A stretch of 11,639 bases of DNA from NCBI GenBank assembly GCA_016184305.1, contig JACPCX010000001.1:1-11639 (forward strand), written 5' to 3'. Positions within the stretch are counted from its first letter, which is position 1. The number at the start of each line of letters is the position of its first letter. This document shows positions 4,769 through 11,639 of this stretch, in pieces. Source of the DNA: Candidatus Rokuibacteriota bacterium (GTDB taxonomy: Bacteria; Methylomirabilota; Methylomirabilia; Rokubacteriales; CSP1-6). The position numbers and the translations under genes were made by a program. A model generated the notes under the pieces. That model was given only the letters and a program-made list of their open reading frames with translations, ran no database searches and was not told where the DNA came from.

Positions 4769-5950
4769 ATGCCTGAGACGATGACCATGCGCGACAAGAC
4801 GGCGATCGCCGGCGTGGGCGTGAGCCGGTTCGGCCGCTTCCCCGACGAGAGCCCCCTCAAGCTCGCCGTCGAGGCGTTCAAGGCCGCCCTCGCCGACGCC
4901 GGGCTCGGCCGGGACGAGGTCGACGGGGTGGCCATCAATATCGGCTGGCCGCTCGGCGTGGACTACGACCGCTTCGCGGAGACCGTCGGCCTCGACCTCC
5001 GCTTCGCCGACCAGACGTGGACCCACGGCCGCTTCGTGGGCCCCACCCTCCAGCACGCGGCGATGGCGGTGGCGGCCGGTCTCGCCCGCTGCGTGGCCTG
5101 CGTGTGCGGCGTGAGCTTCCACCAGCAGCGCGGCCTCCTCGGCGGCCCCGCCGACGTCGAGGGGACGCGCGAGGAGGGCGGCACCCACGAGGAGAACCCC
5201 GTGTACGGGATGACAGCCCCGGCCGCCGGCGCCGCGCTTTCCGCCCAGCGCTACTTCGCCCTCTACGGGGCGACCAGTCGCCAGCTCGCCGCGGTTCCCC
5301 TGGCCTTTCGCAAGCACGCCGCGCTCAACCCTCAGGCCATCATGCGGACGCCCCTCACGCTGGAGGAGCACCAGGCCTCCCGCTACATCGTGGAGCCCCT
5401 GCACCTTTACGACTGCTGCCTGGTCTCGGACGGCGCCGCCTGCGTCCTCGTGACCACCGCCGAGCGGGCCCGCGACGGCCGGAAGCCCCCCGTCCTCGTC
5501 GCCGGCATGCAGGGCATGCGGGCCGGCCGCGACGAGTTCCTCTTCGCCCCCCGGGGCCTCGGCATCCACCAGCAGCGGCATGTCCGCCACACGCCGTCGG
5601 CCGAGGACCTCCTCGTCTACCGCATGGCGGGCACCTCGCGGGACGATATGGACGGCCTCTACACCTACGACGCGTTCTCGCCGCTCGTGCTCTTCACGCT
5701 CGAGCGCTTCGGCTTCTGCGGGCCGGGCGAGGCCGCCGCGTGGGTGCAGGACGGGCGGATCGAGCTGGGGGGTGAGCTGCCGATGAACACCTCCGGCGGG
5801 CTCCTTTCCGAGGCCCACGTCTCGGGCTGGAACTCCATCGTGGAGATCGTCCGCCAGCTCCGGGGCGAGGCGGGCCCGCGCCAGATCGCCGGCGCCCGCG
5901 TGCTCCAGTGGGGGACGTGCTGGGGCGACTCCCTGGTGTTCCGCCGGTGA
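4769..5950 (+). CDS. Thiolase-like protein (SCP-x/Ltp2-like, DUF35-associated)
   Basis: AIAGVG start, [33 protein letters not shown]. Directly upstream of a DUF35 gene. Start could be 4769, 4781 or 4787. Confidence 0.88.
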
Positions 5951-6209
5951 GCGGTTACGCTCGGCCGCTCCCGCGCGTCACCCCCGACAACCTGCCCTTC
6001 TGGGAGGCCGCGCGCCGCCACGAGCTGCGCCTCCAGCGCTGCGGGGGTTGCGGGCGGTTCTGGCACCCGCCGGGCCCCGTGTGCCCCGACTGCCTCTCCG
6101 AGCGATTCGACTGGACGCCGGTGAGCGGGCGGGGGACGGTCTCGAGCTTCGTGGTCTTCCACAAGGCCTACTTCCCGGCGTTCGCCGACGCGATCCCCTA
6201 CGCCGTCGT
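5947..6209 (+). pseudogene. N-terminal part of DUF35 Zn-ribbon/OB-fold protein (C-terminus deleted)
   Basis: GTG overlapping the thiolase stop (GTGA). [20 protein letters not shown]...CPDC...[10 protein letters not shown]...IPYAVV, then an abrupt switch to LLM sequence. Confidence 0.85.
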
Positions 6210-6311
6210 GGGCCTCCGCTTCGGGGTCACGCTCGCCGCCTACCCCGACGGCGTGCCGCCGGCCGCGTGGTGGTGGCGGTTCGCCGAGCGGGCCGAGGCC
6301 CTCGGCTTCGA
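6210..6311 (+). repeat. Direct-repeat copy of the LLM oxidoreductase 5' end (partner 11188-11289)
   Basis: 102 bp, about 6 mismatches by manual alignment. Encodes [33 protein letters not shown]. Confidence 0.93.
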
Positions 6312-6501
6312 GGCCCACCCCACCCGCCGGCGCCGCCGCCGGCTGGGCTGCGCCAGACACCGTTTGTGCTGGCTTCGCTCCGCGGAGGATGACGTCGGCC
6401 ACAGGCCTGTTGCTCGCGCGAGGGGAAGCGACGGCTGGACTGCCCTTCGCCCTCCGTGCGTCGCGCCCCACGCAGTAAGGGCACGACGCGATCTCACGAA
6501 G

Positions 6502-6776
6502 TTGAGCGCGTTGCTGTTTCTCTACCGCGACGTCCTCGGGCAAGATCTGCCGTGGCTCGACGATGTCGTCCGGGCCAAGCGGACCACGCGCCTGCCGGTG
6601 GTCCTCACCCGTGAGGAAGTGCAAGCCGTGGTTCGCCAGCTCCGTGGCACCCACCGGCTCATGGCGATCCTGCTCTATGGAGCCGGTCTCCGCCTCCTCG
6701 AGTGCGCGCGCCTCCGGGTGAAGGACGTTGATTTCGCCCGGCACCAGATCACCGTGCGCGCGGGAAAGGGCGACAA
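6502..6776 (+). pseudogene. intI: Internal fragment of integron integrase (tyrosine recombinase)
   Basis: [38 protein letters not shown]...[22 protein letters not shown]...ITVRAGKGD is typical of IntI. Lacks the N-terminus and the C-terminal HxxR/Y catalytic region. Adjacent to an attC array. Confidence 0.9.
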
Positions 6777-7056
6777 CAAGACCGCCGGATACATCGGTGG
6801 GATGGGACGCCCGGGACTGAAGGCATCGCTTCATCCGCCGATCGATACGGGCCTCTGGGACGGCCTTCGTGAACGGTTTCGAGACAGGACCGCGATCCTC
6901 GACGAAGTCCAATGCGTCCGTCGCATCAAGGAGATCGGTGACTATTCCACGTACCGCCGGATCATCAAGGGCTGCCGGCTGGCGGCGGCCGAACTCGGCT
7001 GCCTTCTCATCGAGTTGGAGCAGTTATGGTTGGGCGCAGCGACGCCGGAGGTCTAA
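6777..7056 (+). pseudogene. 3' remnant of a cassette gene of unknown function
   Basis: [27 protein letters not shown]...[12 protein letters not shown]. Stop TAA lies inside the attC inverse core GTCTAAC, the usual cassette arrangement. No start of its own. Confidence 0.65.
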
Positions 7057-7147
7057 CTTCCGGATGCAGGCGCCGGCGGGCGCATTGGGCGCGGCCGATG
7101 ACAGACGGTTGGCGTGCGCCCGCTGCGCCTGATCCGGCGCGTTAGCC
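7051..7147 (+). other. attC site 1
   Basis: R'' GTCTAAC (7051-7057), R' GTTAGCC (7141-7147). Arms CCGGAT[G]CAGGCGC[C]GGCGGGCGCA and TGCGCCCGCTGCGCCTGATCCGG pair with two unpaired bases on the left arm. Confidence 0.92.
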
Positions 7148-7169
7148 AGCGCCAAGGACCAGCACACTC

Positions 7170-7619
7170 GTGCCTCTACCACGGCTGACCGAAAACGGCG
7201 AGCTGCCGATCGGAGTACACCTAGGATCCTTGCGCGAGGTTCTGGAGCGCTTCGGTGTTGGTTCCGACCAACGCAAGGCCCTGGCTCTCCGCCTCGTGCG
7301 CGTCCACAGCGTGGCTCAAGCGACCGGCCACCTGGCGCGATTCGTCATTTTCGGGTCGTTCGTTACGAGCAAGAGTGAGCCCAACGACGTCGATATCGTC
7401 CTGGTCATGGCCGACGCCTTCGACGCGTCCCAGCTGCGCGGCGAGGCACTGCTTCTCTTTGATCACGGTGCCGCGCAAGCGTACTTCGGCGCCAGCGTGT
7501 TCTGGCTCCGGCGACTGGCAGCGTGGCCGAACGAGCAGGCGGCGGTAGAATTCTGGCAAGTGAAGCGCGGTGGTGGCCAAAGGGGCATCATCGAAGTCAC
7601 GCGGGGGGAGGCATCATGA
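7170..7619 (+). CDS. Minimal Pol-beta-like nucleotidyltransferase (DUF6932-like), cassette gene
   Basis: GTG start 23 nt after R', AAGGA upstream. FVIFGSFVTSKSEPNDVDIVLV carries the GS...DxD motif. Confidence 0.78.
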   Translation: MPLPRLTENGELPIGVHLGSLREVLERFGVGSDQRKALALRLVRVHSVAQATGHLARFVIFGSFVTSKSEPNDVDIVLVMADAFDASQLRGEALLLFDHGAAQAYFGASVFWLRRLAAWPNEQAAVEFWQVKRGGGQRGIIEVTRGEAS

Positions 7620-7822
7620 TCAGCGACGACCAAGAACTCAGCGCCACGCTGGAGCGAATCCGCCATCTCCAGACTCAGGTAACCCATCTCCGCAAGACGG
7701 AGACCAATCCCACGAACTACCACCTGTCGGCATCCGGGTTCCTCGCCGAGATCGACCGGATGCAGCTCGAGGTGCGCGAGTACCTCTCCCTTCATCCCGG
7801 TGAGGTGAAGGCTAGTGCCTGA
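7616..7822 (+). CDS. 68-aa helical hypothetical protein, translationally coupled to the nucleotidyltransferase
   Basis: ATGA overlap at 7616-7619 with GGAGG RBS. MISDDQELSATLERIRHLQTQVTHLRK...FLAEIDRMQLEVREYL. Confidence 0.75.
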   Translation: MISDDQELSATLERIRHLQTQVTHLRKTETNPTNYHLSASGFLAEIDRMQLEVREYLSLHPGEVKASA

Positions 7823-7852
7823 GCGCGCGCGGCGCAACGGTGAGTGGCGACT

Positions 7853-7905
7853 GGCTGACTTCTGCTTCCAGCCGACCGGCGTCGCCGGCGGCTGAAGCAT
7901 GCGTT
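7853..7905 (+). other. attC site 2, R' core interrupted by the IS
   Basis: R'' GGCTGAC. Arms TGCTT[C]CAGCCG[A]CCGGCG / CGCCGGCGGCTGAAGCA, then GTT at 7903-7905. The remainder AGGC is at 9453-9456. Confidence 0.85.
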
Positions 7906-7919
7906 GATATGACTTCCAC

Positions 7920-8223
7920 TGTCGAGAGTCACGATAACGGAGGACCGCGCGTACCCCTGGCATCTTGCTGCGTGGGGTTCGGAGGTTGCTCGAGCCATCG
8001 GAAGAGGCGGGGCCTGTACCTGCGACGGTTGCTCATGCTGATCTCCGTGGGTTGGGTACCACCGTACCGGTGTCCGTCGCGGCGCCGGCTTCGCTCTAGG
8101 GGCGAGGGTTGTGGTCTCATAACGCGATCGAAGATTGCGCCGATACCGGGGCCGCGCCTCCGCCGATGGCTCAAGATCGGGATCATGGGGTCTGCACTCC
8201 GTCCACCTCGATGGACCCGCCCG
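7920..8223 (-). ncRNA. Putative bridge/seek RNA region of the IS1111-type element
   Basis: About 300-nt non-coding region downstream of the transposase. Closing stem GAGCCATCGG (7992-8001) / CCGATGGCTC (8163-8172) extends inward. Short matches to target and end sequences. RNA boundaries are not known. Confidence 0.68.
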
Positions 8224-9339
8224 TCAGGAGGCCAGGGGCACGAGCCGGGCGATGGCCCAGGCGAAGGCGGCCATCTCGCGGGCGATGGCCGCCACGACCT
8301 GGTTGACGTGCTTGCCGCGGGCGGTGAGCTGCCGATACCGTTTGCACAGGCGGACCTGCGCCTTCCAGCCGATCGCCTGGACCTCGGCGGGCAGCTTCTC
8401 CAGCCGGAGCTGCAGATGCCGGCTGACCTTGGCCGGATACCGATACGCCCACGCCCCTTCCACCAGTGGCCGCCGGGCGTGGCTGTTCCCCGCCTTTGTA
8501 ATGCCGCCTTGATGGCGCCGCGCTCCCGACGAGTACTCCGAGGGGGTCAGCCCGAGGGAGCTCATGAGCTGACGCGGGCTGTCGAAGCGCGTGAGGTCCC
8601 CGAGCTCGGTCATCACGATGACGGCGCCGATGAGCTCCACGCCCCGGAGGGCTTGGATCGCCTCGACCACCGGGTAGAGCCGCCAGCCCTTGACCGCCTC
8701 GTGCAGCTCGCGCTCCACGCGCTGCACCCGGTCCTGCTGCTCGGTGACGGCGCGCACGTACTCCTGAAAGACGATCTGCTGCGGCGGGGTCGGGCACACC
8801 ACCTGGGCCAGCCAGCGGAGATGGGCGGGGTTCCAGGTCGCCCGACCCTCGTAGCGAATGTCCCGCCGCAGCAGGAACGACTTCAGCCGGCGCTTGCTCC
8901 GCTTGAGGTCCTGCATGGCATCGTCGCGGCCGCGGCCCAGGTCCCGCAGCGCTTCGTCTTCGACCCAGGGCACGTAGATCGCGCTCAGGTCGCCGCTGCG
9001 CATCAAACGGGCCAGGGTGATCGCGTCGCGCCGATCCGTCTTCACGCGGTCCCCCGCCTTCCGCGGGATGAGCGACGGCGCCACGACCTGGCTGGCCAGA
9101 CCTGTCCCGGTGAGGTACCGATACAGCCCGTAGCCGCACGGCCCCGCCTCGTAGCCGAACATCAGCGTCGCACCCTTCGACTCGAGCCTCCGGATCAGCT
9201 TGTCGATGTCGCTCTGCCGGGTCCCGATCGCCCCCAGCGACACCACCTGGGCGCCGCGGTCCTCGGGCGCGTAGGCGACGCTGATCGAGTCCTTGTGCAC
9301 ATCGAGCCCGACATACAGAGTTTTGCTAGACTCGTCCAT
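8224..9339 (-). CDS. IS110-family DEDD transposase/recombinase, 371 aa
   Basis: [23 protein letters not shown] (DEDD), C-terminal [11 protein letters not shown] and [16 protein letters not shown] upstream. Confidence 0.96.
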
Positions 9340-9471
9340 GGCTGACCTCCACGTTCGTTGGGTGCCCTGCGCACCAGGCGGCTCTGGCCCCTCCAGGCTA
9401 ACCCGCGCAGAGCGCTGGGGGTCAGCCTCACCTCGTGGAAGTCATACTCTCTAGGCGTACTGAGCACGCGC

Positions 9472-9500
9472 TTGCGACGCGACGATCGGGAAGGGAGAAT
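9472..9500 (+). promoter_or_regulatory. Putative sigma70-type cassette promoter
   Basis: TTGCGA (9472-9477), 17-bp spacer, GAGAAT (9495-9500), 6 nt before the antitoxin ATG. Confidence 0.45.
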
Positions 9501-9506
9501 ACGCTC

Positions 9507-9725
9507 ATGAAGAACGTGCTTGAGGACATTCTCTCGCTCAGCGTGGCGGAGCGCCTGCAACTCGTAGAGGATATCTGGGACAGCATCGCAGCGCACCCTG
9601 AAGCGGTCCCGGTCACCGAGGCCCAGCGCAAGGAACTGGCCAGGCGCAAGCGGGCGCACACGCGGAACCCTGAGGCCGCGAAGCCCTGGGAGGAAGTGCG
9701 CGCGCGGCTCAAGCGGCGTCGGTGA
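9507..9725 (+). CDS. Addiction module antitoxin (TIGR02574-like), 72 aa
   Basis: ILSLSVAERLQLVEDIWDSI...TEAQRKELARR...PWEEVRARL. Overlaps the downstream toxin (GTGA). Confidence 0.88.
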   Translation: MKNVLEDILSLSVAERLQLVEDIWDSIAAHPEAVPVTEAQRKELARRKRAHTRNPEAAKPWEEVRARLKRRR

Positions 9726-10018
9726 GACTTCGCCTTACGCGGGAAGCTGAGGCGGATCTCGATGCCGCTTACGCGTGGTACAGGGAACAGAGCTACGGCC
9801 TCGGCGACGCGTTCCTACGATCGGTCGACGCATGTCTTGCGTCAATCGACCGGGAGCCCGAGGCGTATCAGCTCATCGACAGAACGATGCAGCGGGCGCT
9901 GCTTCGACGATTTCCCTACGGCGTGTTCTTCGAGGTGGCAGCGACGGAGATCATCGTCTACGGAGCCTTTCATTGCGCCAGGGACCCCGAGGTCTGGAGG
10001 CGACGACGGGACGCATAA
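9722..10018 (+). CDS. RelE/ParE family toxin
   Basis: EAEADLDAAYAWY...GLGDAF...RALLRRFPYGVFF...GAFHCARDP. Stop lies inside the attC R''. Confidence 0.9.
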   Translation: MRLRLTREAEADLDAAYAWYREQSYGLGDAFLRSVDACLASIDREPEAYQLIDRTMQRALLRRFPYGVFFEVAATEIIVYGAFHCARDPEVWRRRRDA

Positions 10019-10070
10019 CTTCAGCGTCCAGCGGACGCCGAGACGGCGCCGCTGACGCTGACCGTTGGGC
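10013..10070 (+). other. attC site 3
   Basis: R'' GCATAAC, R' GTTGGGC. Arms TCAGCGTC[C]AGCGG[A]CGCCG-aga-CGGCGCCGCTGACGCTGA give canonical extrahelical G and T on the bottom strand. Confidence 0.95.
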
Positions 10071-10141
10071 GGACCGAGAACAAGCTCTCCGGCATCCTAT
10101 TCGGCTGCGACCGACAAGCTGGCTCGATGTAGAATGCCCGG

Positions 10142-10465
10142 GTGATGCTCGACAGCGACGTCCTCTTCGAGGTCCGCACCCCACTGGGGTTCTCGGTTCG
10201 CGTGACCCGGGCTCGGTGGCAACTGATTACGAGCATGAAGCATCCAGTAATGGCCGGTCGGGAGTGGAGCGTGAGGCTAGCGTTGGAGAAGCCGGATGAG
10301 GTTCGCCAGAGTCGGACCGACCCAGAGGTGTTGCTCTTCTACAAGGCGGAAGAGGCCCGACGTTGGGTGTGCGCCGTCATCAAGCGGGCCGGCGATCAGG
10401 CTTTCCTGGTAACCGCGTACCCAACGGACGCAATCAAGGAAGGCATACGAGTATGGCCGAACTGA
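10142..10465 (+). CDS. Putative RelE/BrnT-like (DUF4258/PBECR-like) toxin, cassette gene
   Basis: RWQLITSMKHP...LEKPDEVRQSRTDPEVLLFY...AFLVTAY pattern. Overlaps a DUF2283-like gene. Start is GTG 10142 or ATG 10145. Confidence 0.65.
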   Translation: MMLDSDVLFEVRTPLGFSVRVTRARWQLITSMKHPVMAGREWSVRLALEKPDEVRQSRTDPEVLLFYKAEEARRWVCAVIKRAGDQAFLVTAYPTDAIKEGIRVWPN

Positions 10466-10665
10466 ACGTGCTCTACGACCGTGAGGGACGGACCCTCACC
10501 GTGTGGTTCAGCGATCGACACCAGGAACACGTATGCGAGGAGACTGGCGAGGACGTCGTGCTCATGAAGGACGCGGCCGGACATGTCATTGGGTTTGAGA
10601 AGCTCAATTTCTCTATTCCCGAGACTGACCGGCTTCACGTCGCCATTGAAACGGCACCTGGGTGA
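10453..10665 (+). CDS. DUF2283-like putative antitoxin, 70 aa
   Basis: YDREGRTLTVWF...ETGEDVVLMKDAAGHVIGFEKLN resembles the DUF2283 pattern. Acidic and small. Confidence 0.78.
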   Translation: MAELNVLYDREGRTLTVWFSDRHQEHVCEETGEDVVLMKDAAGHVIGFEKLNFSIPETDRLHVAIETAPG

Positions 10666-10671
10666 GTGGCC

Positions 10672-10761
10672 GCCCAACAACCACGTCGCGCGGCCCGCCC
10701 GCAAGCTACGCTTGCGGGTTCCCTCGCTTCGCTCGGCGGCCGCTCACGTGGACCGTTAGAC
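10672..10761 (+). other. attC site 4
   Basis: R'' GCCCAAC (exact complement of this cassette's GTTGGGC at 10064), R' GTTAGAC. Arms CCACGT[C]GCGCGGCC[C]GCC / GGCGGCCGCTCACGTGG with inner hairpin CCCGCAAGC-tac-GCTTGCGGG. Confidence 0.9.
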
Positions 10762-10940
10762 GCACAGGCATTCCGGTGTGGGCCACGAGTTACTGGCGAG
10801 AGGGCCAGGATCAGGCGCGAGGCGGCGGCGATCCTGAAGTCCGTGCGAGGACAGATGAGGGACGACCGTTACGAGGAGAAGCTACGGGCACTTGGGTCAG
10901 GGCGGAAGTGATGAGTCTGCGTTTACCTCTAACGACCGTC

Positions 10941-11069
10941 GACGGCCTCCACACCTACGACGCCTTCTCGCCGCTCGTGCTCTTCACGCTCGAGCGCGTC
11001 GGCTTCTGCGGGCCGGGCGAGGCCGCCGCGTGGGTGCAGGACGGACGGATCGAGCTGGGGGGTGAGCTG
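10941..11069 (+). repeat. Direct-repeat copy of an internal thiolase segment (partner 5651-5779)
   Basis: 129 bp, 4 mismatches by manual alignment. Encodes [43 protein letters not shown]. Confidence 0.95.
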
Positions 11070-11183
11070 GCGAACGTGGTGGACGTCCCGCCCGCGGAGA
11101 TCCGGATCGACATGGCCGTCAGCGTCGTCTTCGACGACGTGACGCCGGAGATCAGCATCCCGCGCTTCCGCCGCGCCCCGTGA
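11070..11183 (+). pseudogene. C-terminal part of DUF35 OB-fold protein
   Basis: ANVVDVPPAEIRIDMAVSVVFDDVTPEISIPRFRRAP* is a typical DUF35 C-terminus and is the part missing at 6209. Confidence 0.82.
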
Positions 11184-11639
11184 GCGGGGGCCTCCCCGTC
11201 GGGGTCACGCTCGCCGCCTACCCCGACGGCGTCCCGCCCGCCGTGTGGTGGTGGCGGTTCGCCGAGCGGGCCGAGGCCCTCGGTTTCGACTCCCTGTGGG
11301 CCGGCGAACATGTCCTCTTCCACACGGAGACGGTCAGCGCCACCGTCCTCTTGGCCGGCCTCGCCGCCCGCACGGGCCGGATCCGCCTCGGCACCGCCAT
11401 CTACCTCCTGCCGCTCCGCCATCCCGTCCTCGCCGCCAAGGACCTGGCCACGCTCGACCACGTCGCGGGCGGCCGGCTCGTCGTCGGCGTCGGGGTCGGC
11501 GGAGAGTACCCCCGGGAGTTCGCCGGTTGCGCCGTGCCGCTCGGCGAGCGCGGCGCGCGGACGGACGAGGCGCTCGCTCTCTTGCGCCGTCTCTGGCGGG
11601 AGGAACGGGTGACGGCGGCCGGGGCCCACTTCCCCCTGG
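11180..11639 (+). CDS. LLM-class flavin-dependent oxidoreductase (luciferase-like), runs off window end
   Basis: GTG overlapping the upstream TGA. AEALGFDSLWAGEH, TGRIRLGTAIYLLPLRHPVLAAKDLATLDHVAGGRLVVGVGVG, ERGARTDEAL. Not in the ORF track because there is no stop in the window. Confidence 0.92.
   Translation, partial: MSGGLPVGVTLAAYPDGVPPAVWWWRFAERAEALGFDSLWAGEHVLFHTETVSATVLLAGLAARTGRIRLGTAIYLLPLRHPVLAAKDLATLDHVAGGRLVVGVGVGGEYPREFAGCAVPLGERGARTDEALALLRRLWREERVTAAGAHFPL

Follow-up and report, generated by a model that had tools for sequence, protein, structure and literature searches.

A long non-coding region follows the transposase gene of an insertion sequence (IS) that interrupts an integron attC site in Candidatus Rokuibacteriota DNA. 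The question raised by this locus is whether that region codes for the RNA that directs the element to attC. The first-pass annotation of the window (the whole stretch of DNA analysed, 11,639 nucleotides) had read the locus as an IS1111-type element with a guide RNA 3' of its transposase gene, programmed against integron sites. RNA structure, covariation among related elements and the attC target support this prediction: the 3' region very probably codes for a ~190-nt two-loop guide RNA whose target loop specifies the attC R' core and whose donor loop would specify the donor end; this RNA would guide insertion by the recombinase.

The whole IS occupies positions 7905–9453 (1549 bp; minus strand). 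Its ends were placed from the inverted repeats and from alignments to an 82%-identical second copy in its own genome and to 52 related elements, with the convention that the element extends 7 nt outside the left repeat and 3 nt outside the right one; the outermost TA (9452–9453) is probably target-derived. The transposase/recombinase gene (8224–9339, minus strand) is uninterrupted and codes for a protein of 371 aa that features the Pfam domains PF01548 (DEDD, RuvC-like; E 2.5e-17) and PF02371 (E 5.4e-18) and scores 247 bits against the NCBIfam model NF033542 "IS110 family RNA-guided transposase" (cut-off 140). Its translation displays GLDVH, YEAG, KTDRRDA and YSSG, which we take to be the conserved motifs of this protein family. 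The best match in a search of solved structures is the ISCro4 transposase, whose similarity (E 6.5e-4) is too weak to map catalytic residues from it. The left (9435–9446; IS sense TATGACTTCCAC) and right (7908–7919; IS sense GTGGAAGTCATA) subterminal inverted repeats, both read on the minus strand, match each other at 12 of 12 nt. Outside them the element continues for 7 nt at the left end (TAGAGAG) and for 3 nt at the right end (TCA). A target duplication is absent, the flanks GCC and ACGC not being repeats of each other. The non-coding DNA amounts to 319 nt 3' of the transposase gene versus 114 nt 5' of it. Such repeat, extension and non-coding features separate IS1111 from IS110 elements in the available parts of the literature (PMC11187229; PMC11208160). 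By its transposase domains, subterminal repeats, asymmetric extensions and longer 3' non-coding region the element belongs to the IS1111 group.

The IS splits an attC site. The left part (7853–7904, plus strand) starts with the R'' sequence GGCTGAC (7853–7859) and ends with GCGT, the start of R'. The right part of the R' core, TAGGCGTAC, was identified at 9452–9460 (plus strand) by folding and junction comparison. When the IS is removed in silico the restored site folds like the adjacent attC at 10014–10071, with the same two extrahelical bases. The consensus of the attC R' core is GTTRRRY. Insertion is inside R' (GT-TA-GGC) and the transposase gene points opposite to the cassettes. The own assembly (239 contigs, 3.2 Mb, 70% G+C) has two full copies of the IS and one end fragment. 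The sister copy, L002 (contig C224, locus ~1501–2996), is 82% identical and lies in another GCC-TA/ACG site, so that both copies have GCC-TA as left and ACG as right flank, which is CGT-TA-GGC in integron orientation. The target is the attC R' core of GTTAGGC type. Note that the transposase gene of the sister copy is damaged by a 57-nt and a 1-nt deletion. The end fragment L003 (contig C13, 1501–1635) is a solitary stretch of ~135 nt, with 79% identity to the left end of the IS and its 5' untranslated part.

A related IS (L085) from a Klebsiella pneumoniae plasmid, where it separates arr-3 from qacEdelta1 in a class 1 integron, is inserted in attC at the same position and in the same orientation as the window copy, as is the sister copy. 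An uninterrupted arr-3 attC from a second plasmid has GTTAACC where the IS would be inserted; the TA, confined to the left junction, is therefore target sequence. The 8-mer CC-TA-ACGC (GCGTTAGG in integron orientation), the sequence that the guides described below specify, occurs 4 times in the assembly versus ~113 times expected from base composition. Words containing TTA or TAG are strongly avoided in this 70% G+C genome, which makes the target rare outside attC sites. Of 20 sequencing runs listed, 4 are RNA runs, each having only 0.05–0.09 of the sampled words, as contigs. Three DNA runs (X1, X2, X3) and one RNA run (X15) compared to positions 7500–9800 of the window yielded neither an empty site lacking the whole IS nor a circle junction. 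Contigs from three DNA metagenome runs of one study (4, 2 and 5 per run; consensus agreement 0.52–0.68) match the attC up to 7905 and continue into unrelated sequence starting with AGCC, as intact attC copies preceding other cassettes would give.

Related elements were collected by a transposase scan of one genome per species. This gave 574 relatives, the best 80 of which (49–89% identity) were used. Both ends could be placed for the window copy and for 53 of the 80 loci, the 27 loci without them being mostly on truncated contigs; the spurious locus L016 was removed from the set of ends and L002 was added to it by hand. The alignment of non-coding regions excludes L019 and L038 for their length, the set of RNA cores is without L037, L045 and L050, and alignment A1 without L022. 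The ends are nearly invariant in the 54 elements: (T/A)AGACA(T/G) ahead of the left repeat and A(T/C)CA past the right one. Flanking DNA varies widely among the elements despite this uniformity.

The candidate guide (bridge/seek) RNA core covers 188 nt (7988–8175, minus strand). This is the sole match in the window to covariance model R1, whose 46 input sequences are relatives other than the window copy and the sister copy; the match spans the full-length model (positions 1–196) and scores 136.9 bits (E 1.4e-32). The covariance model was among the checks that the first-pass annotation had proposed, and its outcome favours the RNA. The model also matches 28 of the 37 other sources searched, each time 3' of the transposase gene (the clinical-integron element L085 scores 102.9 bits), and the RNA region accompanies the transposase gene in 29 of 38 sources. 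A scan of the whole window against Rfam 15, with E values up to 1, returned no match, the RNA thus not being covered by any curated family. A side observation comes from metagenome runs X1 and X2, in each of which one contig joins position 7923 to 8292 with 7 other letters between them, as in a relative devoid of the entire guide-RNA region; the short side of these joins is only 22 nt and the likeness threshold was 90%, so that the contigs may stem from another organism.

In the fold two closing stems are followed by a short stem and then by two internal loops. The 5' arms of the closing stems (P1 8167–8173, P2 8150–8161; span 8150–8173, minus strand) pair with 7991–7997 and 8003–8014, respectively, the 3' arms together spanning 7991–8014 on the same strand by pairing and family covariation. 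A long closing stem had been noticed at this place and it is indeed there: arms of 26 nt (7989–8014 and 8150–8175 in plus coordinates), 85% complementary and separated by 135 nt, pair in the minimum-energy fold (-132.9 kcal/mol, z -2.15, none of 100 shuffles being equally stable). All 17 pairs of P1 and P2 show two-sided changes in the family. The consensus computed with RNAalifold from 48 distinct cores consists of nine helices with 38 pairs in total, and 33 of the pairs show two-sided changes. Standard pairs fill 91.9% of the cells of these 48 cores versus 71.0% in shuffles, none of 500 shuffles reaching the observed value, and pairing drops to 33.7–44.9% of cells when partners are slid by 1–3 columns. 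Cells changed on both sides number 402, versus 121.5 expected. The conserved structure whose existence had been put forward as a check is thus found, and the window copy forms 37 of its 38 consensus pairs as standard pairs. The first internal loop has closing pairs of CCUCG/CGAGG type and an inner hairpin, while the second is closed by GACG/CGUC and also has an inner hairpin. The target-binding loop unit (8089–8133, minus strand) is delimited by the closing stem 8130–8133/8089–8092 and includes the hairpin 8115–8118/8104–8107; these helices 5 and 6 are paired in 90.1% and 92.7% of cells, and 4/4 and 3/4 of their pairs, respectively, change on both sides. The donor-binding loop unit (8024–8078, minus strand) comprises the stem 8075–8078/8024–8027 and the hairpin 8059–8061/8048–8050 (helices 7 and 8).

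The specificity of the predicted RNA is read from its target loop. The right-target guide is found on the 5' side of the loop (8120–8127, minus strand) and the left-target guide on its 3' side (8094–8102, minus strand), both delimited by column covariation and a permutation test. The right guide contains GCGUUA, which the first-pass annotation had placed correctly at plus 8120–8125 and matched to the target: covariation in the family identifies it as right-target guide plus core. Its bases 8122–8125 (GCGU, minus strand 5'–3') pair with the right flank ACGC and 8120–8121 (UA) with the core. In the left guide, 8099–8102 copy the left flank, 8097–8098 are the core UA and 8095–8096 a conserved GA. 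The CCUAGAG that had been noted at 8094–8100 does have an identical copy across the left junction (9449–9455), but the likeness is homologous only for CC (left flank), UA (core) and GA (family feature); its final G matches the unusual left end TAGAGAG of the window copy and is without covariation in the family. The left-flank match in the window copy is short, being made of 2 contiguous bases plus one of the next two. Together the two guides of the window copy specify CC-TA-ACGC, and in their order the top-strand match comes first, 5' of the bottom-strand one.

The same arrangement is found throughout the family. In the right-target guide a conserved UA is preceded by six bases that are complementary, in reverse, to the six with which the right flank starts. 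Over 39 non-redundant elements this holds at 192 of 234 positions (permuted mean 86.5; reached by 0 of 10,000 permutations). The match extends to the 24 elements whose right flank does not start with AC, that is to sites of non-ACG type (119/144 vs 52.9). In the left-target guide it is the end of the left flank that is copied, by the three bases 5' of (U/A)A-GA; the test on 39 elements, which left out L006, L079 and L002, gave 80 matches of 117 versus 34.9 when permuted (again 0 of 10,000), distributed as 33/39 at position -1, 26/39 at -2 and 21/39 at -3. In 38 of the 39 the core pair of this guide is the same as the dinucleotide with which the left end starts. A scan of mutual information between all RNA columns and all flank or end positions delivers the right-guide columns as its top five signals: columns 70–74 are complementary to right-flank positions 5–1 in 80–96% of 46–48 elements, with 1.0–1.3 bits. 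The next guide-like signals are the left-guide columns, where column 120 agrees with left-flank position -2 in 64% of elements and column 121 with position -1 in 83%. Covariation of guides and targets, which had been put forward as a check, is therefore present on both sides of the loop. A few elements deserve separate mention. L026, L030 and L031, whose left end starts with AA, have AA in the left-target guide too. Relatives L077 and L083 have one RNA in common and are inserted at different sites, one of which fits the guide in only 4 of 6 positions. In the sister copy of the own genome both target guides have changed U to G (GCGUUA to GCGUGA and CCUAGAG to CCGAGAG).

The donor loop carries the left-donor guide AGAUCAG (8038–8044, minus strand), whose family consensus, AUAUCAG, is a copy of the right end extended by the base that follows the left-end TA. 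The AGAUCA reported earlier at plus 8039–8044 is correctly placed and corresponds to this guide, with one mismatch to the right end ATATCA; single mismatches in the donor guide are also carried by 10 other elements. Guide and donor agree in the family as well: in 41 of 52 elements the 6-mer is identical to the right end of the element that carries it, among them those with the variants ATACCA (3) and ATAAGA (1). A right-donor guide for the left end may be present at 8064–8069 (minus strand). It is weakly supported by a partial complementarity, which for left-end positions 7 to 3 holds in 29, 16, 40, 33 and 27 of 48 elements. A right-donor guide complementary to the subterminal repeat was also considered and rejected, the GUCAUG-type motif being constant across clades that have different repeats.

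The work on IS621, ISEc11 and ISKpn4 suggests how such an RNA would be used. The element would excise as a circle whose joined ends, by analogy, create a promoter for the transposase gene and the RNA, with the -35 hexamer in the right end and the -10 hexamer in the left end. The RNA would bind the DEDD/serine recombinase and bring the circle junction and the attC core together, and strand exchange would then insert the element in a single orientation without duplication. The left junction would retain the target TA and the right junction the donor CA. In IS621 the top strand is exchanged 3' of the core, according to the available part of PMC11208158, with a polarity as at these junctions. The presumed promoter half in the right end is the -35-like hexamer TCGACA (7920–7925, minus strand; TTGACA in most relatives), located just inside the right repeat; all 54 elements keep this hexamer, with no more than one mismatch. 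When the junction is joined without the TA, 53 of the 54 elements have a -10-like hexamer (A at position 2, T at position 6) 17–18 nt past the -35; only 8 of 54 have one when the TA is included. In the integrated element a scan of 7800–9560 found 0 promoter-like and 0 terminator-like sites.

With the target TA at the left junction and the donor CA at the right junction, the two cores appear to differ at their first base. On a tentative reading, which we hold at slightly below even chances, the elements of this clade naturally recombine mismatched cores (TA in the target, CA in the donor, with the A shared), the TA is left behind on excision, the top-strand product is fixed and the GA of the left-target guide pairs with the product only, in the manner of a handshake guide. 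If so, the first two bases ("TA") of the 7-nt left extension described in the literature are target DNA. A statement that target and donor cores differ was not found in the available parts of the IS621 and IS1111 papers cited.

Two readings would do without a guide RNA. One takes the matches as fortuitous and the region as a merely structured 3' untranslated region, a terminator or a hairpin of attC or REP type. Matches of 6–7 nt are indeed individually unremarkable, and high-GC DNA folds stably anyway. The first-pass annotation was right to caution that short matches could be chance: the 319-nt region by itself has a single 6-mer (GCGTTA) that matches the target across the insertion point, and dinucleotide shuffling does as well or better in 564 of 2000 cases. 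The target match of the single sequence is therefore not significant and only the comparison across relatives exceeds chance. There, however, the guide columns covary with the flanks of elements that target unrelated sequences, and the stems covary too. The region lies inside the IS bounds and accompanies the transposase gene in most of the sources searched, and the scan for terminator-like sites around it was empty. Fortuitous matching in a plain structure is thus highly improbable, being refuted by guide–flank covariation, stem covariation and the covariance-model matches. Still more improbable is that the region codes for a protein, although an ATG-started open frame of 85 aa (7929–8186, minus strand) overlaps it. 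Of 51 related cores just 12 have a forward frame without a stop, the lengths of the cores are spread over all three classes modulo 3, and variation is paired and compensatory; the stops found in most cores and the spread of lengths refute the coding of this small protein.

It is a different matter whether the guide-RNA gene, if genuine, belongs to a copy that is still active. The closest relative with a readable RNA is L005 (transposase 89% identical). The target loop of the window copy is identical to that of L005, but derived changes are found in the donor guide (AGAUCAG for AUAUCAG), the left end (TAGAGAG for TAGACAG), the -35 hexamer (TCGACA for TTGACA) and the possible right-donor guide. 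Changes in the parts that recognize the donor imply that the window copy may be impaired. The element could accordingly be a fossil that has lost excision and insertion while its donor parts and junction promoter drifted, which would agree with the clear decay of the sister copy and with the presence of just two full copies and one end fragment in the 3.2-Mb assembly. Set against this, the 371-aa transposase frame is intact with its conserved motifs visible, the subterminal repeats are perfect, all but one of the consensus RNA pairs are preserved, and single guide mismatches are found in 10 other elements too. A fossil copy is rather unlikely, if to be reckoned with.

The predicted guide RNA has close precedents. 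Siddiquee et al. 2024 (PMC11187229, available part) demonstrated seekRNAs for ISKpn4 and ISPst6 and predicted one for ISPa25, and the reference lists of that paper show that attC-targeting IS1111 elements have been known since 2008–2009. As published, these three elements resemble the window element in transposase family, subterminal repeats, position of the guide RNA 3' of the transposase gene, possession of two short guides with the top-strand match first and overlapping at the insertion point, and a target that is one attC end (PMC11187229). Bridge RNAs are predicted in 93% of IS1111 entries (PMC11208160, available part), and the order of the guides and the 3' position of the RNA are also in line with what that paper describes for IS1111. 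The description in 2024 of attC-targeting seekRNAs of ISKpn4, ISPst6 and ISPa25 means that the concept is not new; the window element is a new diverged member of a described guide-RNA group and not a new kind. It differs from the clinical-integron elements by its host, an uncultured 70% G+C bacterium, and from L085 by a transposase only 56% identical and by the guide, ACGC(GA) in the window copy and ACGCCG with one wobble in L085.

By prediction the RNA has the plan described for IS621 in the accessible parts of PMC11208160 and PMC11208158, that is two loops, for target and donor, each pairing with both strands around a short core; a joined-end promoter, presumed for the window element, and junctions with the target core on the left and the donor core on the right are further likenesses. 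In IS621, in contrast, the RNA lies 5' of the gene (Durrant et al. 2024, PMC11208160) instead of 3', the order of guides in the loop is reversed, and CT is found in both cores where the window element has TA (target) and CA (donor). The window element also differs by its long subterminal repeats and by the lengths of its guides, the longer one being the right-target guide (~6 nt plus core) and the left-target guide being short (2–3 nt plus core). Transposases annotated in plasmids as "IS110-like element ISSso6 family" are 56% identical to the one in the window over 98% of the length, and the organisation of the element is the same. ISSso6 is, we presume, near-identical to ISEc11. The latter, the model IS1111 seekRNA system, has a documented junction promoter and differs in its target, a linear 12-bp sequence and not an attC (PMC11187229, available part).

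The finding extends a known family, its principle having been published in 2024. It places a predicted RNA-guided IS aimed at integron attC cores in an uncultured high-G+C groundwater-type bacterium. The RNA architecture common to ~50 elements with many different targets amounts to a natural table of guide/target pairs, in which the right side is read over ~6 nt plus core and the left side over 2–3 nt plus core. Elements of this kind shape the cassette arrays of integrons, those of clinical class 1 included.

An integrase remnant and gene cassettes are found in the surroundings of the IS. The region ~6311–10941, which includes the integrase remnant, the cassettes and the IS, is flanked by imperfect direct copies of thiolase and ChsH2/DUF35-like gene ends (5651–5783 vs 10941–11073, 96%; 6207–6311 vs 11185–11289, 93%), which could result from a paralogous operon, a rearrangement or an assembly chimera. 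The integron integrase remnant (6502–6780, plus strand; TIGR02249, E 2e-35) covers only profile positions 68–160 of 315. These ~93 residues are encoded on the cassette strand in an open frame fused with upstream ChsH2-like sequence. The remnant is followed on its 3' side by short cassettes coding for a DUF6932 protein, a small frame, an antitoxin/ParE pair and two more small frames. The cassette at 9508–10018 (plus strand) codes for an Unstab_antitox-type antitoxin and a ParE-family toxin, and is followed by the well-formed attC at 10014–10071.
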